Source of the DNA: Candidatus Woesearchaeota archaeon
Lineage (GTDB): Archaea > Nanobdellota > Nanobdellia > Woesearchaeales > GW2011-AR15
NCBI GenBank assembly: GCA_014729915.1
Contig: WJJD01000058.1
Coordinates: forward strand, 18,293 to 82,292
DNA: 64,000 nucleotides
Reading direction: 5' to 3'
Made by a program: the position numbers and the translations under genes
The notes under the pieces: generated by a model
Databases searched by the model: none
The model's input: the letters and a program-made list of their open reading frames with translations, nothing else
What the model was told of the DNA's origin: nothing
Part shown: positions 31,710-51,520 of the stretch, in pieces
Numbering within the stretch: the stretch's first letter is position 1
Layout: every line of letters starts with the position of its first letter

Positions 31710-31910
31710 ATGGTAACCTTAACAGAGTTTAAAAAGGAGTGGGTAAAACTTGTTTTTAATGAGACCCCGACTAAAGTAGTTGTTAAGCAGGGATACCTCT
31801 ATGATGATGGAGAATTCTATAAAGTGATCGGAGACAGATCAGAAACGCTTGTGCGCAAAGATAAAGTGATCAGTATAACTAAAAAATCTTTTAAAGGTGA
31901 TACAAAATGA
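31710..31910 (+). CDS. Small hypothetical protein (66 aa), translationally coupled to the next gene through an ATGA overlap
   Basis: ORF 'MVTLTEFKKEWVKLVFNETPTKVVVKQGYLYDDGEFYKV...'. Its stop overlaps the start codon of 31907. Confidence 0.4.
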   Translation: MVTLTEFKKEWVKLVFNETPTKVVVKQGYLYDDGEFYKVIGDRSETLVRKDKVISITKKSFKGDTK

Positions 31911-32734
31911 TAAAAAAAGATAGATCAGGAATTAGAAAAATTTTAGCTGTATTTTCAGCATTCATCATACTATCAATATTTGCTTATGCAGCATCAGATG
32001 ATGAGCCAATGCCACTAGAATCTCTCAATGCAACTGAAAACGAAAGGATAAATGTATCTCAGATACCACTTAAATCACATGATGCAGAAGCTGGTAATTT
32101 AACAAAATTGGTCCTATTCGGTAGATCTCAGACAAAGCACTGGCAGGGTTATTACGGAGACATCACAGGTACAATAACATTGGATGATGCTCAGAACTGG
32201 ACATTATATGACTGGGACAATCCTGAGCCCAAAGGAGAGATATATGCAGTAGCAAACACTTCAGGTACAACACCCTCCTGGAGTACAGTCGAATGCTTTA
32301 ATTATACTCAGGAAACAGCAGGAGCAGCATGGGCAAACGGAAACACTACACTTGACAGGTGGGAGACATATTACAACATGACGTGGAATGACGTTGACGG
32401 GATCAATGAGACATTCAATGTGACAACTCATCTTGGATTTTCAGTCGGCTCATATACAATAGATGCTGATTCTTGCCCTGCAACATATACGTATGTAAGT
32501 GATGCATATCAGCAGGACAAATTCAGTGAAATATTGCTCCAGACTGATGAAGCCCAGCTGGTCTTTGCAACAATCATTGAAAACGATGATGAAGCAAATA
32601 ATACAGACCCTACAGGTTTTGATGATGTAGCGCATGACTTCCAGATGCTTGTAGCTGAAGACGGAACGAGTCTTAGTGCAGGTGAGATCAATGAGGATCC
32701 CACAACTTATTATTTTTACATAGATATAGAGTAA
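31907..32734 (+). CDS. Secreted ~250-aa protein, paralog family P1, with a signal peptide and a C-terminus of ...TYYFYIDIE
   Basis: Signal peptide 'MIKKDRSGIRKILAVFSAFIILSIFAYA'. The shared core 'HWQGYYGDITGTITLDDAQNWTLYDWDNPEPKGEIYAV ... STVECFNYT' aligns with the products of 32802 and 36006c. It has many N-x-S/T sequons. Confidence 0.75.
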   Translation: MIKKDRSGIRKILAVFSAFIILSIFAYAASDDEPMPLESLNATENERINVSQIPLKSHDAEAGNLTKLVLFGRSQTKHWQGYYGDITGTITLDDAQNWTLYDWDNPEPKGEIYAVANTSGTTPSWSTVECFNYTQETAGAAWANGNTTLDRWETYYNMTWNDVDGINETFNVTTHLGFSVGSYTIDADSCPATYTYVSDAYQQDKFSEILLQTDEAQLVFATIIENDDEANNTDPTGFDDVAHDFQMLVAEDGTSLSAGEINEDPTTYYFYIDIE

Positions 32735-32801
32735 AAGAAAAAGATTTTTTCTTTTTTTCTATGTAAAAAAGACAGTAAAGCTATAACAGAGATCAACCAA
32801 A

Positions 32802-33560
32802 ATGGAAAAAAAAATAAAACATCGGGATTTTCAGGCAATTCTTCTTGTTTTATTTTTATTGATAATTTATTTTTCAATTGTTATTGCAGCTGAACCTGAA
32901 GGAGGCACAATTGATTTTAAATCAAATTCAACAAAAAATATTACTCCTCCAAGTTCAAGAAATGACACAAAGGGAACAATTACAACTATTGTTATGACAG
33001 CCACACAACAAAACACAAAATGGAAAGCATATGTCGGAAATGTGACAGGAACTCTTGTCTTGAGAGATGCGGCAGATTACAGTATTTATGAATGGACATC
33101 AATCGGAGATCCGACAGGAGAAGTATATATAACAAGGAATGATTCAATAGAATGGTCAAATATCAAGTGTGCAAATTCAACAATTATTGACAGTGAGCAG
33201 GTCTTTTTAAATCATTCACCTACATCCCGGGATAATATCAACAATACTTTTTCAAATCAGGCCCATGATTCATTCTGGGTTGGTGACGTTACCGAAATTC
33301 AAAACAGCACCTGTTGGGGTACAGCAACCTGGATAAATGATTCTTCCCAGACAATTAATGAAGATTCACTGTTCCAGGAGATATTATTGTATGACAATAC
33401 AAATCTTATATATACAACCATAATAGAACAGAATCTCCAGGGATACAGAAATGATTCCGCAACAACTTATGATTTCCAGGCAATACTTCCTGATAATGCA
33501 TTACCCGGAAGCACCGGACAGGTAACATATTATTTTTATGTTGAGATCGAGTCAGGATAA
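32802..33560 (+). CDS. Secreted ~250-aa protein, paralog family P1, ending ...TYYFYVEIESG
   Basis: Signal peptide 'MEKKIKHRDFQAILLVLFLLIIYFSIVIAAEP'. Core 'KWKAYVGNVTGTLVLRDAADYSIYEWTSIGDPTGEVYITRNDSIEWSNIKCANSTII ... NLIYTTIIEQN'. Confidence 0.75.
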   Translation: MEKKIKHRDFQAILLVLFLLIIYFSIVIAAEPEGGTIDFKSNSTKNITPPSSRNDTKGTITTIVMTATQQNTKWKAYVGNVTGTLVLRDAADYSIYEWTSIGDPTGEVYITRNDSIEWSNIKCANSTIIDSEQVFLNHSPTSRDNINNTFSNQAHDSFWVGDVTEIQNSTCWGTATWINDSSQTINEDSLFQEILLYDNTNLIYTTIIEQNLQGYRNDSATTYDFQAILPDNALPGSTGQVTYYFYVEIESG

Positions 33561-36005: not shown

Positions 36006-36731
36006 TCACGCAAGCTCAATCCAGAAAAAATAAGGAGTAGACTGCTCTCCGGGAAGATCCTTTTCAGGTACAATCATCTGGAAATCATAGTTTTTGAAAT
36101 TAAAACCCTGCTCTTCATCATGCAGAAGAGTTGTATATATAAGGTTAGTTTTATCAGTCAAAAGCACTTCCTGGAACAATGCATCTTCTGTTACTGTCTG
36201 CTGAGTATTGTTGACCCAGGTAGCAGTAGATCTGCATGTGCTGTTTTCAATATAAGTTGTGCCAACATAAAATTCCTTGTGTATTTCATATTCAAACGTG
36301 TTGTTTATGCTGTCTTCATTAGAGAAAGTATGATTCATTGCAGTCTCCTCACCAGAGATTATTGTGTGATTTGCACATTCTATGCTGTTCCAGTCCACAG
36401 AATCATTTCTTGAAGCATAGACCTCTCCTGTGACAGTTGTCAATGACCAGTCATAGATAGTATAGTTATCTGCATCATCAAGAGTGAATTTTCCTGAAAT
36501 ATTACCTACATATGCTTTCCATCTGGGATTTTGGGTCTCGCCATAAAGTATGAGGGTTGTAAACGTCCCGCCCGAAGTATTTACAAATGATGCAGGTTCA
36601 GAGTCTTTAGTCTCTGAATTGCTGTACGGAATCATGGCACCTGTAGGCTCAATTGCATAAGAGATTCTGAATAAGATTGCAAAAAAGACCAGGATAAATC
36701 CTAATATCCGGATTAATCTCTTATTTTTCAT
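36006..36731 (-). CDS. Secreted ~240-aa protein, paralog family P1, ending ...PYFFWIELA
   Basis: Signal peptide 'MKNKRLIRILGFILVFFAILFRISYA'. Core 'RWKAYVGNISGKFTLDDADNYTIYDWSLTTVTGEVYASRNDSVDWNSIECANHTII ... NLIYTTLLHDE'. Confidence 0.75.
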   Translation of the reverse strand: MKNKRLIRILGFILVFFAILFRISYAIEPTGAMIPYSNSETKDSEPASFVNTSGGTFTTLILYGETQNPRWKAYVGNISGKFTLDDADNYTIYDWSLTTVTGEVYASRNDSVDWNSIECANHTIISGEETAMNHTFSNEDSINNTFEYEIHKEFYVGTTYIENSTCRSTATWVNNTQQTVTEDALFQEVLLTDKTNLIYTTLLHDEEQGFNFKNYDFQMIVPEKDLPGEQSTPYFFWIELA

Positions 36732-37242
36732 TTTTGTTCAGAGCTCTTTTGTATGTTGTCCAGATTGTCTGGTAATGTTTGCAGAGAAGATCTGCGATTT
36801 TATTGTAGGAGAGGGTCTTTTTTTCTTTAAGAAACAGAACAATATTTTCCAGCACACTGTAATTTCTTCTCTTAAAAATATCCAGGGGTATAGATATTTC
36901 AGAATCTTTAATTACAAGTTTTTTCAGGAATTTTTTTTTAGAATTAGAATAAGTGCTCCATATTGTCCTGTCATCCCTGTTAAGTTCCTGTGCTATCTCA
37001 TGGTAGCTCATATCTTTGTTCTCTTTTAGAAATTTTACTATTATCTCAAGAGAACTGAGGTTAGGGGTCTTAAAAACAGAGATTGGTACAGAAAGGGATT
37101 CTTTTTTTATGATCCCGAGAACCTCGTCTGTAGAGAGCTGATACTTATCTTTAAAATAAGCATCCACAACTTCTAATGCTTCTACAATCTTGTCATTTTT
37201 CAGTTTTTCTTTCAGAAAAACCCCTCTCCCTTGATGCATCAA
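36721..37242 (-). CDS. Putative transcriptional regulator with two tandem helix-turn-helix units
   Basis: Internal duplication 'SSLEIIVKFLKENKDMSYHEIAQELNRDDRTIWSTYSNSKKKF' and 'SVLENIVLFLKEKKTLSYNKIADLLCKHYQTIWTTYKRALNK', which resembles a sigma-70 region-4/LuxR-type HTH. It overlaps the downstream P1 gene by 11 nt. Confidence 0.45.
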   Translation of the reverse strand: MMHQGRGVFLKEKLKNDKIVEALEVVDAYFKDKYQLSTDEVLGIIKKESLSVPISVFKTPNLSSLEIIVKFLKENKDMSYHEIAQELNRDDRTIWSTYSNSKKKFLKKLVIKDSEISIPLDIFKRRNYSVLENIVLFLKEKKTLSYNKIADLLCKHYQTIWTTYKRALNKNEK

Positions 37243-37410
37243 TACTTAATAAGTAAGAACAAGTATATAAATTTTATTATATAATAAGTATAATTTACTT
37301 AAAAATTAATAATAAATACTTATTATGTAAGAAAAAAATATGTTTTTTTTAGTAGATAGTATGGGAGCTGATAAAATGAAAATGCCATTAGTTACTTAGT
37401 CTATACTGTA

Positions 37411-37517
37411 CACTCTTCTTCTACACCGCACATGCTCCGCACACCACACCAGCCATACTTCCTGACCACACCCCCGGCCACAACGTTACATACTCTGACT
37501 GACTCCAAACACACGAG
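37411..37517. other. Strongly strand-asymmetric CA-rich, G-depleted tract of ~107 nt in the divergent intergenic region
   Basis: 'cactcttcttctacaccgcacatgctccgcacaccacaccagccatacttcctgaccacacccccggccacaacg...' is about 42% C and about 11% G in a ~33% GC genome. The complementary strand carries G-runs (GGCCGGGGGTGTGG ... GGTGTGGTGTGCGG). Confidence 0.4.
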
Positions 37518-37553
37518 CAGAATAGAAAATTTTTTTCAAAAATTTTCTATACA

Positions 37554-37568
37554 AAAAGTATATATTTG
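37554..37568 (+). promoter_or_regulatory. TATA-box-like element about 25-35 nt upstream of the 37591 start codon, consistent with an archaeal leaderless promoter
   Basis: 'AAAGTATATATTTGA' at 37554..37568, with the ATG at 37591. Confidence 0.3.
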
Positions 37569-37590
37569 AGATGTTTCTCAATTGTAATAG

Positions 37591-39276
37591 ATGAAAAAAA
37601 AAGGTATTGAATCTGTGGAGCAGTGGATGTGGATTATTGCGGGCCTTGCAATAGCAACCCTAATTATTATTGGAGGGTACAGCATTATTTCTCAGTTAGT
37701 TGCAGACAAACAACTTAAAGAAACAATGGATACTTTCAATAATTTAAAAAACAGGATACAGGATCTGTGTTATAGAAATAAAAAATCACAGGAAATTCAC
37801 TACATGAAGATCAGCGACATTGTAAAAGAGATCTCTGTAAGAAACAGCACAACCATGAGGACAGGCAACGGAACAATGCTTTGTATTGAAATTGAAGACA
37901 AGAACCGGGAATGCCAGCAATTAAAAAACTGCGTATATGATCTTGTTCCTATAAGATTCCAAAAACAGCAAAACATATTTTCAACAATCCAGAAAGCGCT
38001 TGGCAGCTCAAGATCTGCAAAAATTGCTGTATTGATAACAAAAGGGACATTTGATAAGGTTTTTGTTACCTGGACAGAAGTGTTTTCAGAAGACCAGATC
38101 GGATCCGAAGTGAACAAAGAGATTTTCTCTAAAACAAAGCAATATGTAATTTCATATGAATACCACAAATTAATCAATGATATAAAAGAGATAATACAGG
38201 AAGTTTCAGAAATTAAGACAAGTTCAGTGAATAAAAACCTCGATTTTCCTACAGAAGTTGAAAAAATGTATTTTTTTAACCTTTCTGAAGAACTTAAAGA
38301 GCTTGACTATAAGGAAAATCTTAATCTTCATGAAAAAATAAAATCATATGATGAATCCAATTTATTTTTTATACAGGAAAGGGGAGCACTTAAATCCTAC
38401 CGGATTGAAGGATTGGATCTGCAGGAGCCGAATTATCTGTGCGTCAAAAATATCGACGGGAGGATGAGGCTTAATTTTGAGAGCACGGGAAATGGAGTAA
38501 ATATATTAACCCGGGATTCAGACTCAGACTGCACTTATCCTGTGATTGCAAGAGAAGTTGCAACTTATCTTGAAAAAGAGTCCTCAGAAGAATTTGAACA
38601 GGAGATGGAGTCATTAAAAGAATCAATAGAAAATGATTTTCCCGAAGTTTCAATTGATTATGAGCTGGATTATGATCCTGTTGAAGATAAGACCAAAGCA
38701 AGTATCAAATTCTCATCCTCACTGGATGCTGAGAATTTCAGATTAATTCATTTTATCCCGAAGTGTATGCTTCAGCTGGCTGATGAATTGTCTTTTAGTT
38801 ATGAAGGAAAGCAGCCGGAGGAGATAGAGATATTGAGGGAGGATCCATTGATAATGTGGCACTTTAATGAAATTGATCTTGAAAAAACTTCTATAAATTA
38901 TGAAAAGAGCGGCAAGGTGGATGAATTCTGCGAGGAACTTCTCACTAATTTTTTAGTATCTGTTAGGAGAAGGGATGGCTTTTTCGGAAAGCATAAAAAA
39001 CCAGGCATTTACAAATTCGATGATTCAGATTTTGATGAGGAAAAAAATTATGAAGATTTATATCCTGATGATTTGGACAATGATGGATTTCCGGATGAAT
39101 GGGAGGATATGTATGGGTATAACAAAAGGAATAAGAATGATCCCGGAGAATCTTCTGATCATGATAGTGACGGCGCAGATTCAAGAGCAGAATACAATCA
39201 TAACATGGATCCGAAAAATCCCGATACTGACGGAGATGGTATACTGGATGGAGCAGAGATTCAGGAAGAAGAATAG
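37591..39276 (+). CDS. Type IV pilin-like (class III signal peptide) protein of 561 aa with C-terminal thrombospondin type-3-like Ca-binding repeats
   Basis: N-terminus 'MKKKGIESVEQWMWIIAGLAIATLIIIGGY': basic residues, then Gly, then Glu at +5, then a 20-aa hydrophobic stretch. C-terminal D-x-D-x-D-G motifs: 'DDLDNDGFPDEWED ... DHDSDGADSRAEYNHNMDPKNPDTDGDGILDGAEIQ'. Confidence 0.5.
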   Translation: MKKKGIESVEQWMWIIAGLAIATLIIIGGYSIISQLVADKQLKETMDTFNNLKNRIQDLCYRNKKSQEIHYMKISDIVKEISVRNSTTMRTGNGTMLCIEIEDKNRECQQLKNCVYDLVPIRFQKQQNIFSTIQKALGSSRSAKIAVLITKGTFDKVFVTWTEVFSEDQIGSEVNKEIFSKTKQYVISYEYHKLINDIKEIIQEVSEIKTSSVNKNLDFPTEVEKMYFFNLSEELKELDYKENLNLHEKIKSYDESNLFFIQERGALKSYRIEGLDLQEPNYLCVKNIDGRMRLNFESTGNGVNILTRDSDSDCTYPVIAREVATYLEKESSEEFEQEMESLKESIENDFPEVSIDYELDYDPVEDKTKASIKFSSSLDAENFRLIHFIPKCMLQLADELSFSYEGKQPEEIEILREDPLIMWHFNEIDLEKTSINYEKSGKVDEFCEELLTNFLVSVRRRDGFFGKHKKPGIYKFDDSDFDEEKNYEDLYPDDLDNDGFPDEWEDMYGYNKRNKNDPGESSDHDSDGADSRAEYNHNMDPKNPDTDGDGILDGAEIQEEE

Positions 39277-39336
39277 GAATGCAGGCAAAAAAATTATAAA
39301 GGAGAATACCATTAATCTTAAAAAAAGGGGAAATAA

Positions 39337-39840
39337 ATGATATATGACAGGAATCAGTTTGTTTTTAATATTGTCCTTTCTCTATTGCTGATTATCATGA
39401 TACTTGTATGCGGATTTTTTGGATACAAATTCATACAAATCAAAAACCAGATGGAAGATATCAATACCAATCTTGAAGAGATTGAAAAAAACCAGCATTA
39501 TACAAATTATATACAGGCAAGTCATCAGGACATAAGATTTCAGTTGTCTCCTGAAGGATTTTTTATATATGGAGCTGATGATTACGGGACTTTGCAGGGA
39601 CCATCAATGCAGCCGTCCATCTTTGACAGCCATACTCTCATCCAGGTAAAATATACTGATCAGAATCTCTCAGAAGGCCAGATTGTAAGATACTATGACT
39701 CTGAAAGGACTCCTGTAATCCACAGGATAAGGGGAGTATACAATAACACAGTGAAAGTCCAGGGAGACAACCTGGACCAGGATGAGATTATTGAAAAGAA
39801 CCAGATAACTCATCTCATTCTCGGAGTACTTTTTACATAA
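39337..39840 (+). CDS. Signal peptidase I, S26 family, archaeal/eukaryal Sec11-type (Ser/His)
   Basis: N-terminal TM anchor 'FVFNIVLSLLLIIMILVCGFFGY'. Box B is 'GPSMQP' (Ser nucleophile). Box C-like is 'GQIVRY'. Box D is 'VIHRI' (His general base). Box E is 'GDNLDQDE'. Confidence 0.7.
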   Translation: MIYDRNQFVFNIVLSLLLIIMILVCGFFGYKFIQIKNQMEDINTNLEEIEKNQHYTNYIQASHQDIRFQLSPEGFFIYGADDYGTLQGPSMQPSIFDSHTLIQVKYTDQNLSEGQIVRYYDSERTPVIHRIRGVYNNTVKVQGDNLDQDEIIEKNQITHLILGVLFT

Positions 39841-39841
39841 A

Positions 39842-40135
39842 ATGGATCTTAATGAGCTTGATGTCTGGTATGAAAACCATAAAAAGCGGTTAGAAGAAGA
39901 ATACAGAAAAAAACTAAGGAACCATAAAAATAAAAAAAAAGCAAAACAGGAATTTTCTGAAAAAATTAAAAAACTTCATAAGAAATACATTAAAAAAAGC
40001 GAGAAGATAATAAAGGCCAGCCAGAGAAAAAAGGGATTAAAAAGAAAGTTTCTTAAAAAGACAAAAGGGATAAGGCAAAAAATTAACAGTATCAAAGAAA
40101 GGTGTGTGAAGGAACCTGAACAGGAGACAGAATAA
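39842..40135 (+). CDS. Highly basic Lys-rich coiled-coil hypothetical protein (97 aa)
   Basis: '...KKRLEEEYRKKLRNHKNKKKAKQEFSEKIKKLHKKYIKKSEKIIKASQRKKGLKRKF...'. Its start lies 2 nt after the signal peptidase stop. Confidence 0.4.
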   Translation: MDLNELDVWYENHKKRLEEEYRKKLRNHKNKKKAKQEFSEKIKKLHKKYIKKSEKIIKASQRKKGLKRKFLKKTKGIRQKINSIKERCVKEPEQETE

Positions 40136-40172
40136 TAAATTTTTTAAACAACTAAATAAATATTCAATTTTA

Positions 40173-40487
40173 ATGAGAAACGCCTCATATAAAAAAAAGA
40201 TAAAGAAAAAAATATACCTTCAGAATATTCTTATTCTGATTTGTGTTGTCCTTCTGGGATACTTGGTTTATGCTAAGTTCAGGCCTGAGATTGTAAAAGT
40301 TCCTGTAAAAGATGACTGCGGGCCTATAGGAAACACGATTTCACACCTGATTTCTGACAATGAAGACTGTGTGAATGCCTGCTCTTCTGCATGCAAATCA
40401 TTTGGCCACGTATATTATAAGAGCAAATTTATCTATAATAATGAAGTAAGATGCAACAATTGCACTTGTCAATGTAAAAAAATTTAA
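40173..40487 (+). CDS. Small membrane-anchored Cys-rich protein (104 aa)
   Basis: TM 'IYLQNILILICVVLLGYLVYA', then a region of 10 cysteines '...DCGPIGN ... EDCVNACSSACKSFGH ... RCNNCTCQCKKI'. Confidence 0.4.
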   Translation: MRNASYKKKIKKKIYLQNILILICVVLLGYLVYAKFRPEIVKVPVKDDCGPIGNTISHLISDNEDCVNACSSACKSFGHVYYKSKFIYNNEVRCNNCTCQCKKI

Positions 40488-40501
40488 ATAAGTCTGAATA
40501 A

Positions 40502-42307
40502 TTGAGAAATAATAAAGTGAGGGGAAACTGTTTGAATTTAAAAAAATTAATAATAATTCTATTTATTTTTATTGCAATACCTTTTGTTTCAGGACTTGAA
40601 CCGGAGCAGATAATTTCAAACTCAGCTGACTGGCAGGATGTATATTCCACAATGCTTTATTCTGAATTGACAGGAAAATCATCCTATTTTTTAGTAAGTT
40701 CCAGGCATTCAACACTATTGATAGGTCAGTTGTCAAAATCACAAAAAAATACCTGGGTGATTAGTTCTGAAAAAAATCCTTATGTAGTAAGCTATAAACC
40801 TGTACTTGAATCAAAGGGATTTGCTGTTGAGGAATTTGAGTACTCAAATGTCAATCTTGAGATGGCCCGGAAGATAGAAAATATAACGAACTTCATAGTT
40901 CTGGATGATTCATACGGATATAATGCAATATCAGTAGCTCCTTATGCTGTTCTTACTGATTCTTATGTCTTGTTTGCCGACAGAAAAAATATCAACCTCA
41001 TCTCAAATTTCTTAAACACCCGGCAGGTAGAGAGTCTGCTTATTTACGGCCAGGTGGACAGGGAAGTTAAGGAAAGGTTGAGTGTTTTTTCTCCGGAGAC
41101 AATTAACAACGGAGACAGGTTTTTAGACAACCAGGCAATAGTTGATAAATACCAGGAAAAACACATTGAAGTCTATGGGGAGCCAAAAACCCAGGTCATC
41201 TTGACAAACGGGGAATTCATTGAGCAGGAAATTTTATCAGGAGTGGAGCCGGTTGTCTTTATCGGAAGAGCAAATGTGCCGGATCAGGTCCGTGAATATA
41301 TAAAAAACAGCGATATTGAGATAGGAATACTGATTGGAAATGAGCTTATCGGCTCAGCAACATTTATCAGAAGGCAGCTCGGAATAAGTGTTTTTGTAAA
41401 ATTTGCACAGAGTGCAAGAACACCTTCAGGCCCTATTTCTGCAGTTGAGGATCTTGACAGGTTTTATCTTCCAAGATACATTCTAAGCCTTGATTTATAC
41501 AGGGTGAGATACAACAAGATGAATAACCAGGTTTATGTTACATACCAGAATAATGTTGCCTTATCATCATACCTAAAGGGTACCATTACATTAAGATATG
41601 AAGGAGAAACTCAGACTGTTGGGGATAGTGAACCTGTTTTTATTGACAAGAACGAATATAAGACAATTGTGTATGACATTGATCCTGTAAGCGCAGAACA
41701 GATCCGGGCAGAAGTCTTTACTATTTATGGCGAAAGCAGGAAATCATTAGAGTATACATTAAGAGAGACAGTTGATGTTGAGACAGTAAATATCCTTGAT
41801 AATTCTGAAATAGAGATTGTAAATGTAAGGTATGACAGGAGAAAAGGAGAGTTTCTCATTGATATAAAAAACACAGGAAATGTTGATGTGTTTGTTGATC
41901 TGGAGTTAGTTGATATTCTGATAAATGATGAACTCAGGACATTTGGTCCTGAAGAAGTTTCTTTCATAGAAAAAGGAGAGGTTGAGACAATCATGGTGGA
42001 AGTTGAGATGGCTGAAGAGGATTTTGAGAACAACCCCAAAGTAAGGCTTACAGCTTATTACGGAGAAAGGGAAAGAAACCTTGTAAATGTGATTTCAGGC
42101 GAATATGATTATTCATTTACTGGTTTTGGTTATCTTACTGGCCGGCTCATAAAGGATATCGGCGGATCAGCAGTCACATTCGGTCCGATAATCATAATTC
42201 TTCTTCTTTTGATATTGATTATAGGCATGAAAAAGAAATGTCCCGACTGCAATGAAATCAACTCATTAAGAAGCAAAAAATGCAAAAGATGCGGCAGAGA
42301 GATCTGA
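40502..42307 (+). CDS. Secreted 601-aa protein with a signal peptide, a C-terminal TM helix and a short cytoplasmic 4-Cys zinc ribbon
   Basis: '...LIIILFIFIAIPFVSG' signal peptide. Three internal ~100-aa repeats. C-terminus 'GPIIIILLLLILIIGMKKKCPDCNEINSLRSKKCKRCGREI'. Confidence 0.6.
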   Translation: MRNNKVRGNCLNLKKLIIILFIFIAIPFVSGLEPEQIISNSADWQDVYSTMLYSELTGKSSYFLVSSRHSTLLIGQLSKSQKNTWVISSEKNPYVVSYKPVLESKGFAVEEFEYSNVNLEMARKIENITNFIVLDDSYGYNAISVAPYAVLTDSYVLFADRKNINLISNFLNTRQVESLLIYGQVDREVKERLSVFSPETINNGDRFLDNQAIVDKYQEKHIEVYGEPKTQVILTNGEFIEQEILSGVEPVVFIGRANVPDQVREYIKNSDIEIGILIGNELIGSATFIRRQLGISVFVKFAQSARTPSGPISAVEDLDRFYLPRYILSLDLYRVRYNKMNNQVYVTYQNNVALSSYLKGTITLRYEGETQTVGDSEPVFIDKNEYKTIVYDIDPVSAEQIRAEVFTIYGESRKSLEYTLRETVDVETVNILDNSEIEIVNVRYDRRKGEFLIDIKNTGNVDVFVDLELVDILINDELRTFGPEEVSFIEKGEVETIMVEVEMAEEDFENNPKVRLTAYYGERERNLVNVISGEYDYSFTGFGYLTGRLIKDIGGSAVTFGPIIIILLLLILIIGMKKKCPDCNEINSLRSKKCKRCGREI

Positions 42308-42375: not shown

Positions 42376-43012
42376 AAAATTTGCTTAAGCAAATTTTGAT
42401 AAGGGTTTAAAGCCCCGAGCTTTAGGTCGTTTTGTTCTTTGAAAAAATTTAAATTGCGGCTTCGCCGCAGTATGTACTGCGGACGAAGTTGCGCAATTAC
42501 TAAAGACCATTAAACTAGTGTTAACTTTCTTCCGCGGAGGCGAAAATTGATAAATACATAGTTGAGTCGGTTAAGCCACAAAGTTGGAACAAATTTTTGG
42601 CATTTGGAATGGTGTCCAAAATATAAATATAAAATGATGAGGAAGTATGGAAATAAAAATCTTGTAAAAGCAGCAATAAGAAAATTTGCCAAAAAACATG
42701 AGATTAAAATAAACTATATTGCTGTTTTACCAGAACATGTTCATCTATTGTGTACATTGCCAAGAGGAAAGACAGATTCTTGGGCATTTCATAAACTTAA
42801 AGGAGGTTCAGCTTACCTAATTTTCAAGAATAAAGAAAAATTTCGTCTGCGATATCCGCAAGGGCATTTTCGGTCCCCCGGGGGTGTGTGCAGTTACAGG
42901 TGGAAACAATGATCTAACTGATATAATTGTTTATATTAAAAAGTCAAGAAAAACGTCATGGTGTTTTGTAAAATTAAACACTCCACGTAAAGCCCTGCCA
43001 TTTATGGCAGGG
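42376..43012 (+). mobile_element. Degenerate IS200/IS605-family element: a 22-bp perfect palindrome, an imperfect subterminal hairpin, a tnpA-like ORF, and a perfect 8-bp-stem hairpin at the right side
   Basis: AAAATTTGCTTAAGCAAATTTT at 42376..42397. The imperfect IR 'TTGCGGCTTCGCCGCAGTATGTACTGCGGACGAAGTTGCGCAA' at about 42454-42496. The hairpin CCCTGCCA-TTTA-TGGCAGGG at 42993..43012. No tnpB is present. Confidence 0.4.
42562..42912 (+). CDS. tnpA: IS200/IS605-family TnpA-like HUH (Y1) transposase, probably C-terminally truncated or inactive
   Basis: 'WHLEWCPKYKYK' matches the 'H.V..PKYRRK' strand. 'LPEHVHLLCTLP' is the HUH motif (compare 'MPDHVHLLVSIP'). 'KLKGGSAYLI ... GHFRSPGG' matches 'LKG.SSR.L ... 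GHLWSPSYF'. The ORF ends soon after, before the usual C-terminal Tyr helix. Confidence 0.5.
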   Translation: MSRLSHKVGTNFWHLEWCPKYKYKMMRKYGNKNLVKAAIRKFAKKHEIKINYIAVLPEHVHLLCTLPRGKTDSWAFHKLKGGSAYLIFKNKEKFRLRYPQGHFRSPGGVCSYRWKQ

Positions 43013-43465: not shown

Positions 43466-43960
43466 TCAGCAGTCTTCAATCTGAGTGATATCTGCTGAAT
43501 ATGCCCTATCTATACAGTTATAAGTTGTACCATCTGCTGATCTTATCATCGGAATTATCTGGACCTGCCTTACTCCATTAAGGCCTGCGGTACTGTAAGT
43601 GAAGTTGAAGATGTCACTCTGTCCTGAAGTCAAAGCATATCCTGTACTTGAGTTTGTGTAAATATCATCATTTCCGATGACCTGGAAAAACATATCTACA
43701 ATATTTCTTGATCCTCTGTTAATCAATGTTGTTTTTATAGTATTTGTGTCCTTGCACACATCATAAACATCATTGATAACCATAGGTTTTAATACAACTT
43801 CTGTTCCGCATTCGAGTTTTACAGTCTCTCCTCCGATTTTGTCTACGCTCTCTTCTGTCATCCCCCGAAGGAATACTGAGATGAAAGCACCTACTGAAAC
43901 AACAACTAATACAAGAATAATTGCTCCTAAAAAAGTTGAGACACCTCTTTTATCATTCAT
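43466..43960 (-). CDS. Archaeal type IV pilin-like protein with a class III signal peptide
   Basis: 'MNDKRGVSTFLGAIILVLVVVSVGAFISVF': a short basic n-region, a K-R-G cleavage motif, then a 20+-residue hydrophobic segment typical of archaeal pilins/archaellins. Total length 164 aa. Confidence 0.6.
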   Translation of the reverse strand: MNDKRGVSTFLGAIILVLVVVSVGAFISVFLRGMTEESVDKIGGETVKLECGTEVVLKPMVINDVYDVCKDTNTIKTTLINRGSRNIVDMFFQVIGNDDIYTNSSTGYALTSGQSDIFNFTYSTAGLNGVRQVQIIPMIRSADGTTYNCIDRAYSADITQIEDC

Positions 43961-48269: not shown

Positions 48270-49253
48270 ATGAAACTCGCATTTGCGACCGGTCCTTATG
48301 CCCAGTCAGAGGATTCTTTATACATCTTTCTAAAAGAAGCTTTAAGCCGAAACCACAAGGTTTATCTCTTTATTTTGGATGATATTTATACAAAAGACAA
48401 TCATATTTTTGCTGACCTGATGCTGCTTTCGAAAAAAAGATTCGGCATAGACAATAATCAAAGATATAAATTTGATAAAAAAGTTCCCATGCAGCTGGGG
48501 TCAATGAACGCAGTTTTTTTAAAAAGAGATCCGCCTGTTCCTGCAGATAAACTTGAAATGATAAAAGATCTCGGCAAAAAAGTTTTTGTTGTAAATGATC
48601 CCGCAGGCATAATAAAATATAAAAGCAAGTCTTCTCTTGAAAGATTTTCAGAATTCATGCCTGAGACCTTCTTTTCAAAAGATGTCTCATTTCTTAAACA
48701 AAAAATCAATGAATTAAAAGATTGTGTACTAAAACAGGACTTCAGCTATGGTGGTCTTGGTATCCATCGTATATATGAGAAGAACAATCAATATTTTCAT
48801 AATCATCTGAAGATAAAAAATCAAAAAATACAGCTGACTCCTTTTCTTAAAAAACTGACATTAGACGGGACAAAAAAATTGACACTTGTCCGTTTCCTCA
48901 AAAATATAGACCAGGGAGATAAACGGATAATAATTCTTGACGGAAAAATTCTTGGTGCTATACTAAGAAAACCCTCAAAGGACTCATGGATATGTAATAT
49001 CACTTCAGGAGGGGTTGCGGGAAAAACAACAATTACAGAGGATGAACAAGAAATGATTAAAAAAATATCTCCTGTCCTTACGCAGGACGGAATACATATT
49101 GCAGGATTTGACACTCTGGTGGATGACAGCGGTAAAAGAGTATTATCAGAAATAAACACAACCAATGTTGGAGCGTTTCATATCCTGAACAAAACTTATA
49201 ATTTAAAACTAGAAAAGAAAATTATTGATTGGTTAGAACACGAATCTTTTTAA
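48270..49253 (+). CDS. Glutathione synthetase-like ATP-grasp ligase (GshB/RimK family)
   Basis: Alignable to E. coli GshB: 'FLKRDPPVPADKLEMIKDL' versus 'LMRKDPPFDTEF'. 'DGDKRIIILDGKILGAILRKPSKDSWICNITSGGVAGKTTITEDEQEMIKKISPVLTQDGIHIAGFDTLVDDSGKRVLSEINTTNVGAF' versus '[82 protein letters not shown]'. Confidence 0.7.
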   Translation: MKLAFATGPYAQSEDSLYIFLKEALSRNHKVYLFILDDIYTKDNHIFADLMLLSKKRFGIDNNQRYKFDKKVPMQLGSMNAVFLKRDPPVPADKLEMIKDLGKKVFVVNDPAGIIKYKSKSSLERFSEFMPETFFSKDVSFLKQKINELKDCVLKQDFSYGGLGIHRIYEKNNQYFHNHLKIKNQKIQLTPFLKKLTLDGTKKLTLVRFLKNIDQGDKRIIILDGKILGAILRKPSKDSWICNITSGGVAGKTTITEDEQEMIKKISPVLTQDGIHIAGFDTLVDDSGKRVLSEINTTNVGAFHILNKTYNLKLEKKIIDWLEHESF

Positions 49254-49461
49254 ATCTTATATTTTTCATTCTTTAACCCTCATTAAATAGAATACATTAA
49301 AATGAAGAGAAAAAAGAATGAAAAGTCAGTTCTGCTGCCTCGGATGGATTGTCTAAAAAATAATAATGAGAATATTATATATTCCTCCATAGATATATTT
49401 ATATATCAGTATAGTTTTTTATATACTAATATAAAGTAATGTAAATCAAAAGGTAAAGAAA

Positions 49462-50211
49462 ATGTGCAGAATGGTTATCGGGATCGGAAATATAGACACA
49501 AAAAAATTAATTGATGATTTCAGGTATATTGCTCAGGGAAAAAATGAGCTGCATGAAAAAAATCCATATTACGGAAAACTAATGCATGATCATGGCTGGG
49601 GTCTTGCCTACCTGAACAAAAAAAATAAATGGGTCATATATAAGTCAGTCAACCCGATATATGAGGATAAAAACCTAAAGGAATTTACAGATATCGACAC
49701 ACAGGCCTTGATAATACATGCAAGAAAAGCGACTGCGGGAAACAAGACTATACCTAATACTCAGCCTCTGTTTTTCAAAAATCAGGATCAGGAATTTTTA
49801 TTCGCCCATAACGGAACAATCAACGATCAGTTTGATATTAAAACTAAATATCTTGAATATGGAGATTCAGACACAGTAATGTGGTTCAATAAGATTCTTC
49901 TGGATGTCAACAAGGAAAATGAAGTCAGGATTGAAAAACATTTGTATTCATTAAAAAACTTCACTTCAGCAAATTTCTTTTTTGTAACTCCTGAAAAAAT
50001 CTTTGTAGGGCAGTATTACAGAAAGGATCCAAAATATCATACAATGAAATTATTTAAGGAAAATTACGGATTAATAATATCTTCAGAAATACTTCCACAT
50101 CTTAAAAGTAAAAACTGGAGTGAGATTCCCAACAGGAGCATTTTTGAGATTGATTATAAAAAAAAAAGGGCAATGGTTAAAAAACGGATTTCTCAGACAT
50201 CTTCCGTGTGA
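49462..50211 (+). CDS. Class II (Ntn-type) glutamine amidotransferase-like protein, YafJ/EgtC-like
   Basis: It starts 'MCR...', with Cys2 as the Ntn nucleophile as in YafJ/EgtC. 'HDHGWGLAY' matches the 'DGWGIA' core. The length of about 250 aa is typical. Confidence 0.6.
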   Translation: MCRMVIGIGNIDTKKLIDDFRYIAQGKNELHEKNPYYGKLMHDHGWGLAYLNKKNKWVIYKSVNPIYEDKNLKEFTDIDTQALIIHARKATAGNKTIPNTQPLFFKNQDQEFLFAHNGTINDQFDIKTKYLEYGDSDTVMWFNKILLDVNKENEVRIEKHLYSLKNFTSANFFFVTPEKIFVGQYYRKDPKYHTMKLFKENYGLIISSEILPHLKSKNWSEIPNRSIFEIDYKKKRAMVKKRISQTSSV

Positions 50212-51520
50212 TCAAGAGATTCTTGAATAGTTTATCAGAAAGTTTTATAGATAATTCCTCAGCTGTTTCCTGTGTAATTCTTTTATAATTAGTATATCCC
50301 TGTTTTTTCTTGACATAATCAAGAATCTCATCAGAGGTTGTTTTTCTTTTTTCAAGTATCTCCTTAAATTCCTGTAAAATTAATTTGTTATTATCAATTA
50401 CGTTCTTATCAAGAAAATCAACAAGGGATCCGCAATACTCTCTTATCTTCATGCTGTCAAGACCTTTAACTGCGGATTTTTTCTGGAGAACATTCCTGAG
50501 ATAATCTGCCTGGGGAACATAGAGCTTATCTGATTCTAATTTGAATGGATTTTTATTCCCGATTTTATCAGGAATTATCTTTATTTTGTTTTTATTAATA
50601 TATCTTATGAAATTTTTCAATATCCCGCACAACCCTGCAACCTTTTTAACGGAATTCATATCACATCCCCTGCTTTCGATTGTGCCGTGAGCAGTAACTT
50701 TTACAGGTTTCCATGAAGAATCAAGGATTGAAGTTCCGTATTTTGTGAATTTATTAAAAGAAACATCATGCTCATTTAACAATTTTTTCCATTCCGTACT
50801 TCTTTTCCGGATAGAATTTTTAAGTTCATTAAATTCCAGAGAATACTTATTTAATGTCCCGAAATCAGGTTGCCTTGCATAAAGCGAGTTCTCATATTCG
50901 AAAAACTCCTCTCCCCTGTATGCAATTATCCTGGAATCCTTGCCGAGATAGTTCCCCTGATAATACGGGGATGACTGCATAAAAGTTGTTATTGCTGGAT
51001 CAAGTGCAATAAAAAGATTATTTACATTAAGGACTTTATGCTTATCCCTCTCTTTTATATCAGGGTAGAAGAATTTTATATTCCTGTTAAATGTTCTTCT
51101 TGGAAGCGAATAATGATAGTGAAAACCGATGCATCTTCCGGCTGTCTTCCAGTTCTCTTTTCCAAGAATTTTTTCTTTTGCATAGTACCTGGGTTCTTCC
51201 CTCATTTCAGGGGAATTTTTTCCGGGATATGAGCCGTAGTAAAACAGGCTTAAGTCCTGTTTATCAATATCATATATCAGATTTTCAAAATCATCAAAAA
51301 AATTGCTGAATACGTGTCTTGAGGAAAGATGCGGGAATGTTGCAATCTCTAACATATTTTTTCCGCATTCTTTCTTTAATTCAGTGTTTGTCAGATTTTT
51401 TTTAAATTCTTCAAGAACTGAATCTGCTTTATTAACAATCCTGCCTTCATTATCAATAAGAAAGAATTCAAGTTCGATCCCGAATGTCCTATGGCTCGGT
51501 GGATAACTGATAGGAGTCAT
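50177..51520 (-). CDS. GCS2/YbdK-family carboxylate-amine ligase (glutamate-cysteine ligase-like amidoligase)
   Basis: N-terminal 'RTFGIELEFFLIDNEGRIV' matches YbdK/GCS2 'FTLGIEEELQLVD'. 447 aa. Convergent with, and overlapping, the 3' end of the amidotransferase gene. Confidence 0.65.
   Translation of the reverse strand: MTPISYPPSHRTFGIELEFFLIDNEGRIVNKADSVLEEFKKNLTNTELKKECGKNMLEIATFPHLSSRHVFSNFFDDFENLIYDIDKQDLSLFYYGSYPGKNSPEMREEPRYYAKEKILGKENWKTAGRCIGFHYHYSLPRRTFNRNIKFFYPDIKERDKHKVLNVNNLFIALDPAITTFMQSSPYYQGNYLGKDSRIIAYRGEEFFEYENSLYARQPDFGTLNKYSLEFNELKNSIRKRSTEWKKLLNEHDVSFNKFTKYGTSILDSSWKPVKVTAHGTIESRGCDMNSVKKVAGLCGILKNFIRYINKNKIKIIPDKIGNKNPFKLESDKLYVPQADYLRNVLQKKSAVKGLDSMKIREYCGSLVDFLDKNVIDNNKLILQEFKEILEKRKTTSDEILDYVKKKQGYTNYKRITQETAEELSIKLSDKLFKNLLITRKMSEKSVF

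Follow-up and report, generated by a model that had tools for sequence, protein, structure and literature searches.

The locus

We analysed a 64-kb window (the whole stretch of 64,000 nt taken from contig WJJD01000058.1 of a Candidatus Woesearchaeota archaeon) and focused on its region 37591-39840, which consists of two co-directional open reading frames (ORFs) on the plus strand. The first encodes a protein of 561 amino acids (aa) and the second a protein of 167 aa, with a gap of exactly 60 nt between them; the coordinates and the spacing given in the first-pass annotation of this DNA were both borne out. The two products are identical to NCBI hypothetical proteins of Candidatus Woesearchaeota archaeon, GF327_03675 and GF327_03680. 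The 561-aa protein is a fusion of a pilin-like N-terminal module (N-module), an uncharacterised middle module and a tail of thrombospondin type-3 (TSP3)-type repeats. The 167-aa protein, a signal peptidase I by its sequence motifs, belongs to a conserved Woesearchaeal surface-protein cluster, and the 561-aa gene lies in the variable slot of that cluster. The coordinates of all features are compiled in Table 1.

Three modules in the 561-aa protein

The modules emerge from the pattern of homology. We searched the 561-aa protein exhaustively with phmmer against 1.8 billion representatives (E<=1e-3) and obtained 3,205 matching proteins, which fall into three groups according to the region they cover. 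First, by far most of them align with aa ~490-558 alone, often as 10-40 tandem stretches in giant proteins. Second, the proteins P0132, P0136, P0138, P0140, P0161, P0229 and P0135 match aa ~183-557. Third, P0194, P0211, P0226, P0242, P0245 and P0275 match aa 1-165 only; three of them are stand-alone proteins of 162-176 aa, and the other three carry unrelated C-terminal regions. A word-index homologue search with the same query returned only the protein itself. The N-module thus occurs both alone (159-181 aa across the family) and fused to other C-terminal regions, and the TSP3 tail is common to thousands of non-pilin proteins.

P0194, P0242 (L008:10001-11749), P0275 and the product of L013:96-1868 join the N-module to other C-terminal regions rich in Cys, of which that of P0242 bears an HExxH motif (HELGHQL). 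Pfam gave no match to the C-terminal regions of these four proteins.

We also modelled the 561-aa protein with AlphaFold from a 14-row alignment. The mean predicted local distance difference test score (pLDDT) is 61 overall and about 40% of the model lies below 50, for which reason a Foldseek search with the whole model returned noise.

N-module and predicted class III signal

The protein begins with M-K-K-K-G/I-E-S-V-E (here and below, a slash marks a predicted cleavage site). Class III signal sequences are recognised by a charged residue at -2, G, A or S at -1 and a hydrophobic H-domain (PMC4371748). Residues K4-G5 provide a charged -2 and a Gly at -1, Glu10 becomes +5 if the chain is cut after Gly5, and a 22-residue hydrophobic stretch, WMWIIAGLAIATLIIIGGYSII, follows at aa 12-33 with a mean Kyte-Doolittle hydropathy of 2.66 over 15 residues. 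An acidic +5 is typical of bacterial pilins and restricted to a subset of archaeal ones, the EppA type (PMC4371748). These features are conserved throughout the family. K or R at -2 and G or A at -1 were seen in 12 of 12 leader-bearing members, Glu at +5 is invariant across all members, and the family shares the signature [KR][GA]/[IVM]-E-S-V-E-x-W-M-W. Moreover, the N-module alignment (A3) shows invariant E7, S8, E10, W12, M13, A17, G18, Y30, C60, C98, C108 and C114. The pilin-like N-terminus proposed in the first-pass annotation therefore agrees with the class III rules and with conservation across the family.

In the AlphaFold model, the N-module consists of a continuous helix of 53 residues (aa 9-61), strands at 67-74, 78-84, 96-101, 107-110 and 115-118, a short helix, and two further strands at 143-151 and 156-164. 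The mean pLDDT of 10-residue blocks over aa 11-160 ranges from 56 to 93 and is mostly 74-93, with a dip to 56-65 over aa 121-140. As modelled, this would be the arrangement of a pilin, with a long helix on a beta-sheet.

The family also includes relatives without a leader (Table 1). In five loci, the N-module ORF starts with a Met exactly at the predicted +1 (M-E-S-V-E-V-W-M-W), and an in-frame stop lies 2-10 codons upstream with no alternative start. Since the predicted cleavage site coincides with the natural N-terminus of these relatives, they lend independent support to the predicted start of the mature protein. Judging from these ORFs, part of the N-module family would need no processing. 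Having no basic leader, the leaderless relatives are N-terminally acidic, an oddity for proteins that would insert N-in.

Middle module and TSP3 tail

The alignment of the middle module (A6) contains four invariant cysteines (C284, C314, C392 and C447) and the conserved motifs P-x-Y-x-C, D-C, I-P-K-C and D-P-x-x-M-W-x-F. No Pfam family matches the module consistently, and none is common to the members of its family. The module is poorly modelled (pLDDT 30-60), in part owing to the misplacement of its first ~95 residues by MAFFT. This placement suggested that the opening part of the middle module duplicates the N-module, a reading that hhalign rejected (probability 0.5%). In its family the module sits directly behind class-III-like N-termini (KKGQ, KRGE, KRGL) and is therefore a recurrent passenger of pilin-like anchors. 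A metagenome scan for middle-module loci yielded two, neither in an informative context. The module's C-terminal sub-domain (I-P-K ... D-P-L-I-M-W-H-F) also ends a long coiled-coil protein encoded at L024:208-1590, and by this resemblance it may be an independent mobile domain.

The tail contains D-x-D-x-[DN]-G motifs at aa 494 (DLDNDG), 523 (DHDSDG) and 545 (DTDGDG), preceded by a degenerate DSDFD at aa 478. All of these Asp motifs fall within the last 85 residues, and none of 20,000 shuffles of the 561-aa protein reached three or more D-x-D-x-[DN]-G motifs. Their pattern, D-x-D-x-D-G-F-P-D-x-W-E ... D-x-D-x-D-G ... E-Y ... D-P-x-x-x-D-T-D-G-D-G-x-x-D-G-x-E, is that of classic bacterial TSP3 repeats, and the tail is modelled with a pLDDT of 74-94. 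The protein itself scores 21.8-22.1 bits against TSP3_bac, where the Pfam cutoff is 25. Its homologues P0136 (31.2 bits) and P0138 (35 bits) pass this cutoff over their own TSP3 tails, the very region that HMMER aligned to the tail of the 561-aa protein. Because of these two homologues and the thousands of phmmer matches limited to the tail, we accepted the TSP3 assignment despite the sub-threshold score, and the Asp motifs are TSP3 repeats as had been read from the sequence at first. Given the established properties of TSP3 repeats, Ca2+ binding by the tail is to be expected.

N-module genes in other DPANN loci

A genome scan revealed 14 further N-module loci, all in Woesearchaeota, Nanoarchaeota or mislabelled metagenome-assembled genomes of DPANN archaea. 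There the N-module is usually a stand-alone protein of 160-180 aa. Its gene is, in most of the loci, the last of a run of up to nine co-directional genes, with a ~150-aa pilin-like gene directly upstream in 12 of the 14. Nearly all products of these runs have a short basic leader ending in [KR][GAS] and then a hydrophobic stretch (for example, KRG-YTVINFVL, KKAQ-TSE, KKG-TVFI and KKA-ELTLQY). Archaeal type IV filament loci with several minor pilins have been described (PMC4858521), and the N-module operons look like such loci.

Two further families accompany the N-module genes. First, a protein of ~720 aa with about nine transmembrane (TM) segments around two large soluble loops adjoins the pilin-like operons in seven loci. 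By its architecture it could be a platform protein of the FlaJ/PilC type, an identity that we did not accept as established: the architecture is what speaks for it, the T2SSF model matched one of the seven members at E=0.12, and no PDB sequence matched. Second, a soluble, coiled-coil-rich protein of ~560-650 aa is encoded on the opposite strand, convergent and right after the N-module gene, in nine loci; it has no Pfam or NCBIfam match. In addition, triplets of paralogous ~190-aa five-TM proteins with no family match occur a few kb from the pilin-like genes (L016:13183-14916 and L019:5880-7657).

The first gene of one pilin-like operon (L008:594-3209) encodes an 872-aa protein with the class-III-like N-terminus MQKRG/ETVLNFVL and a C-terminal GDSL lipase/acylhydrolase domain (Pfam E=1.3e-14), possibly a filament-displayed hydrolase.

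At L016 we found a 768-aa secretion ATPase, which matches FlaI (NCBIfam E=8e-36), TadA and Pfam T2SSE (45.5 bits, cutoff 24.9). A match to BasE, the ATPase of the bindosome, was also obtained (E=9.5e-17). In Sulfolobus, class III signals serve the sugar-binding proteins of a bindosome-like surface assembly, and the 561-aa protein might likewise be a class III signal protein that tethers cargo to a short pseudopilus or bindosome-like assembly, with no long pilus. The fusion of the N-module to several different C-terminal regions, the GDSL domain on another class-III-like protein of these operons and the BasE match all suit this idea. However, FlaI and TadA are far better matches to the ATPase than BasE is, and six to nine pilin-like genes per operon are more typical of filaments with several minor pilins (PMC4858521). 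We therefore consider an assembly of this kind quite unlikely and prefer a filament.

The neighbouring signal peptidase and its cluster

The 167-aa protein has an N-terminal TM segment at aa 11-32, with the Ser of its S-M-x-P box downstream. Its boxes G88-P-S90-M-Q-P93, H129-R130 and G143-D-N145 are invariant in all six family members. The family comprises six clusters of 50-100% identity, and its profile found a more distant homologue at L006. Compared with PDB, the profile gave signal peptidases for all of its best six matches, headed by human SEC11C (E=0.0025) and including SpsB and SEC11A; in the SEC11C alignment the SM-P (SMEP in SEC11C), HR and GDN boxes are all in register. The scores with curated models are below their thresholds (Peptidase_S26, 19.3 vs 22.9 bits; sigpep_I_arch, 22.4 vs 51.85; SipW, 21.3 vs 190), and five of the six family members match the S26 model only weakly. 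We kept the S26 assignment in spite of these scores on account of the PDB matches. On this sequence evidence we accepted the protein as a divergent signal peptidase I of the endoplasmic reticulum (ER)/archaeal (Ser/His) type, in line with the earlier call of a signal peptidase I with Ser and His boxes. Between the membrane anchor and the catalytic Ser, the family has a conserved and unusually long segment of ~55 residues (aa 33-85); the active site of signal peptidases is normally close to the membrane surface.

The peptidase is found in four other loci, L001, L002, L003 and L006. In every peptidase locus it is accompanied by a member of the family of a 241-aa secreted protein, whose gene is directly upstream of and co-directional with the peptidase gene in L002 and L003. 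This family is very large (at least 960 clusters), with three copies in the window. The 241-aa protein has an A-x-A-type site, SYA/IEPTG, and sites in the family are followed by a conserved P-x-G; the predicted sites in the 275-aa and 252-aa paralogues are AYA/AS and VIA/AE. A gene for a helix-turn-helix (HTH) regulator is paired with the 241-family gene in all loci that reach far enough upstream (L001, L004-L006, L021 and L022). Since the pair also occurs without a nearby peptidase, in L004/L005, L021 and L022, the peptidase is an optional member of this HTH-241 island. On the downstream side, the order of the 97-aa and 104-aa genes behind the peptidase is unchanged in L001, L002, L003 and L006; the 601-aa gene was seen in L001 and L006, and L002 and L003 end before its position.

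The slot between the 241-aa gene and the peptidase is filled differently in each setting or is empty (Table 1). The 829-aa protein in the slot of L006 was considered as a homologue of the 561-aa protein and rejected, the BLASTP match being only a 23-residue acidic patch. Conversely, the genome of L001 has an N-module gene on a different contig (L011), next to a nine-TM protein. As the partners of the peptidase are constant while the content of the slot varies or is absent, the adjacency of the pilin-like gene and the peptidase is incidental. This synteny agrees with the first-pass annotation, which had cautioned that adjacency need not mean that the peptidase cuts the pilin. From the sites described above, the peptidase most likely removes A-x-A-type signal peptides of the cluster proteins, and members of the 241-aa family are the obvious candidate substrates.

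We also weighed whether the two genes might form a functional pair in which the S26 peptidase matures the pilin-like protein. They share a strand, are separated by 60 nt and have no terminator-like site between them. However, no A-x-A-type site follows the hydrophobic region of the 561-aa N-terminus, the pairing is kept in none of the four other peptidase loci, and no S26 peptidase lies next to the N-module gene in any of the other N-module loci. Furthermore, class III signals are cut ahead of the hydrophobic region by aspartic A24 peptidases (PMC4858521). A functional pair is thus highly improbable.

Proposed role of the 561-aa protein

The 561-aa protein is probably a modular type IV pilin-like protein, a minor or tip pilin-adhesin that is processed by a prepilin peptidase and not by the neighbouring S26 enzyme. 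In this proposal, the Sec pathway would insert the protein into the membrane with its N-terminus in. An A24-family prepilin peptidase would cut off the five-residue MKKKG and leave Ile1...Glu5 at the head of a long helix, first hydrophobic and then amphipathic. Through this helix the N-module (aa 1-165) would enter a type IV filament as a minor, most probably tip-located subunit and carry outward the disulfide-bonded domain (aa ~183-470) and the short TSP3 tail (aa ~478-558), which is expected to bind Ca2+ and to stiffen the structure or mediate adhesion. A Ca-binding minor pilin or adhesin tip had been put forward as a plausible role at the outset, and it is still the best reading. The module boundaries and homologies, the conserved motifs, the synteny and the predicted pilin-like fold of the N-module come directly from the analysis, while leader cleavage, entry into a filament and the position there, Ca2+ binding, adhesion and the substrates of the peptidase are inferred.

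Several observations weigh against this proposal. Pfam, searched with aa 1-60 at E<=10, gave no hit to pilin or class III signal models; NCBIfam gave no hit for the N-terminus of the 561-aa protein; and the profile of the N-module family matched no PDB sequence. The fold search was weakly supportive, with no significant match to a pilin fold. The 64-kb window holds no pilus ATPase, platform protein or prepilin peptidase, a secretion ATPase was seen in just one of the 14 N-module loci, and no T2SSF signature could be detected in the nine-TM protein next to the homologues, nor does this protein match anything in PDB. The leader is dispensable in part of the N-module family, which is also compatible with no processing at all. 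Besides, the S26 scores of the peptidase and the TSP3_bac score of the tail lie below their curated thresholds.

Some of these points would suit an N-terminus that is an ordinary uncleaved signal anchor, which would make the 561-aa protein a type II membrane protein showing its middle domain and TSP3 tail without any filament. The lack of a pilin hidden Markov model (HMM) hit and of a significant fold match, the lack of pilus machinery in the window, and the leaderless relatives, in which processing is not needed, all fit an anchor. A plain anchor, however, does not require the strict conservation of K/R at -2, G/A at -1 and Glu at +5. Moreover, relatives lie within operons of class-III-like proteins, once together with a FlaI/TadA ATPase, and the continuous modelled helix of 53 residues far exceeds a membrane span. 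For these reasons we regard a signal anchor as unlikely and retain the modular pilin-adhesin.

A broader idea can be offered tentatively. The N-module operons might encode a DPANN-specific type IV filament whose last-encoded subunit is a universal carrier of interchangeable cargo for host contact, with part of the carriers leaderless and hence made without prepilin-peptidase processing, and with a nine-TM platform lacking detectable T2SSF ancestry. Just as tentatively, the cargo might include the adhesin-like module with its TSP3 tail and further C-terminal regions, the HExxH-bearing one among them, with the GDSL hydrolase as a sister protein in the same operons.

Other features of the locus and the window

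The GC content of the window is ~0.29-0.40, and many of the encoded proteins are secreted ones with abundant N-glycosylation sequons; its overall character is consistent with a DPANN origin. We found no compositional sign of a recent transfer of the 561-aa gene, whose GC content of 0.356 equals that of its neighbours. The divergent intergenic region upstream of this gene (37243-37590) has an AT-rich part resembling stretches upstream of the HTH genes in L006 and L021. It also includes a C-rich tract (41% C) at 37400-37520 and, immediately before the gene, a 29-nt palindrome at 37522-37550. A structured RNA in the C-rich tract was rejected (unstructured, z=+0.8), and no tRNA or Rfam match was found anywhere in the window.

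Elsewhere in the window, a second pilin-like gene, unrelated to the first, encodes a 164-aa protein (43466-43960, minus strand) with the N-terminus KRG/VSTFLGAIILVLVVV, whose score with the archaellin/type IV pilin N-terminal model is 19.4 bits (cutoff 20). An ORF of 8,049 aa (89-24238) encodes a surface protein with LamG, DUF2341, CARDB and several Ig-like domains, and its listed start lacks a signal peptide. In type IV pilus loci of archaea, a link between DUF2341 and PilY-like tip adhesins has been drawn (PMC4858521). An IS200-like Y1 transposase is encoded at 42562-42912 (Pfam E=1.6e-12), beyond the peptidase cluster on its downstream side. The genes grouped at 48270-51520 resemble those for the glutathione synthetase ATP-grasp, for a glutamine amidotransferase of class II and for glutamate-cysteine ligase family 2, a small-molecule pathway that one would not expect in a reduced DPANN genome.

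Table 1. Features of the 561-aa gene, the peptidase cluster and related loci. Positions refer to the window unless a locus is named.
Feature	Position	Strand	Basis or remark
561-aa modular pilin-like protein gene, GF327_03675	37591..39276	+	ORF; identical NCBI protein; three-module homology pattern
Predicted class III leader MKKKG (aa 1-5), cleavage predicted after Gly5	37591..37605	+	K at -2, G at -1; leaderless homologues start at +1
Pilin-like N-module (aa 1-165)	37591..38085	+	Modelled alpha-1 helix (hydrophobic, then amphipathic) and beta-sheet head; four invariant Cys
Middle module (aa ~183-470)	38137..39000	+	Matches to P0132, P0136, P0138, P0140, P0161, P0229, P0135; alignment A6
TSP3-type acidic repeat tail (aa 478-558)	39022..39264	+	One degenerate and three canonical D-x-D-x-D-G loops
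167-aa divergent ER/archaeal-type S26 signal peptidase I gene, GF327_03680	39337..39840	+	Invariant boxes; PDB matches
Three conserved genes downstream of the peptidase	39842..42307	+	97-aa coiled-coil protein; 104-aa Cys-rich TM protein; 601-aa protein with C-terminal TM and zinc ribbon
173-aa double-HTH regulator	36721..37242	-	Pfam HTH_23, Sigma70_r4_2, HTH_38
241-aa secreted beta-sandwich protein with Sec signal	36006..36731	-	Family member present in every peptidase locus
241-aa-family paralogues, 275 aa and 252 aa, with Sec-type signal peptides	31907..33560	+	phmmer E=4.8e-29 and 3.4e-69 against the 241-aa protein
Slot between 241-aa gene and peptidase	window		561-aa gene; HTH-241 pair inverted
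Slot between 241-aa gene and peptidase	L001		Two unrelated minus-strand genes
Slot between 241-aa gene and peptidase	L002, L003		Nothing; 241-aa gene directly precedes peptidase
Slot between 241-aa gene and peptidase	L006		Unrelated 829-aa surface protein
Leaderless N-module genes	L012:2841, L014:8190, L015:10001, L016:10001, L017:10001; also L018:868, L019:1330		
Nine-TM ~720-aa family	L011:6832-8994, L014:1745-3910, L015:17093-19228, L016:1616-3886, L017:7066-9198, L018:1376-3523, L020:482-2734		
Coiled-coil ~560-650-aa genes	L007:8153-9406, L008:13106-14869, L009:10503-12293, L010:10649-12301, L014:8691-10652, L015:10478-12157, L016:10477-12201, L018:3924-5762		

Significance and comparison with known systems

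Like other DPANN archaea, Woesearchaeota have not been cultured, possess reduced genomes and presumably live attached to hosts; to our knowledge, little is established about how they attach. The present results provide concrete candidate attachment proteins and a search signature, [KR][GA]/[IVM]ESVExWMW, for DPANN archaea across Woesearchaeota and Nanoarchaeota. They extend the idea of modular pilins, established for bacteria, to archaea, and flag the leaderless pilin-like genes as a testable oddity. Moreover, the peptidase and the HTH regulator form a distinct conserved surface-protein cluster together with the 241-aa family, which is very large and unannotated; this cluster is worth a separate study.

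The peptidase resembles ER/archaeal signal peptidases I (Sec11, archaeal signal peptidase I and Bacillus SipW; MEROPS S26) in its TM anchor, the Ser of S-M-x-P, the H-R in place of the bacterial Lys and the G-D-N box. It differs from them in its strong divergence (19-23 bits), its linker of ~55 residues and its restriction to a narrow clade. Like sipW, its gene clusters with genes for secreted proteins; unlike the SipW-TasA fibre operon, the clustered secreted partner is not TasA-like, as it lacks the TasA/AbpA jelly-roll. The tail shares with the bacterial TSP3 repeat (PF18884) the D-x-D-x-D-G-x-x-D-x-x-E loops and the P-D-x-W-E and D-T-D-G-D-G-x-x-D-G-x-E variants, whereas it has only three to four repeats, is placed at the extreme C-terminus of a pilin-like protein and scores just below the threshold.

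As to the N-module, the EppA-type (DUF361-like) Epd pilins of Methanococcus, with KGQ- sites (PMC4371748), have a similar short basic K-G leader, a Glu at +5, an H-domain and several pilin-like genes per operon. In contrast, residue +1 of the N-module is Ile, Val or Met, where EppA requires Gln (PMC4371748), and the 561-aa protein does not match their HMMs, has a four-Cys head and is much larger through its fusions. A parallel in design is found among the modular type IV pilins of bacteria, such as PilB and PilC of Streptococcus sanguinis, CofB, GspK and ComZ (PMC8179133). Both have a small pilin module at the N-terminus with a class III signal and, as predicted for the 561-aa protein, a long alpha-1 helix, a C-terminal graft joined by a linker, a predicted minor or tip location with a role in adhesion, and one carrier module with different cargo. 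Unlike them, the 561-aa protein is archaeal (DPANN) and its pilin family lies outside every curated pilin model; its grafts, the four-Cys domain and the TSP3 tail, are not among the most frequent extra domains in PMC8179133; and some N-module relatives have no leader peptide. In short, modular pilins, TSP3 repeats and ER-type signal peptidases are already known as concepts. New are the occurrence in DPANN archaea, a carrier pilin family that curated models do not detect, the combination of the three modules, the leaderless relatives of the carrier, and the associated operon with its unrecognisable platform candidate.

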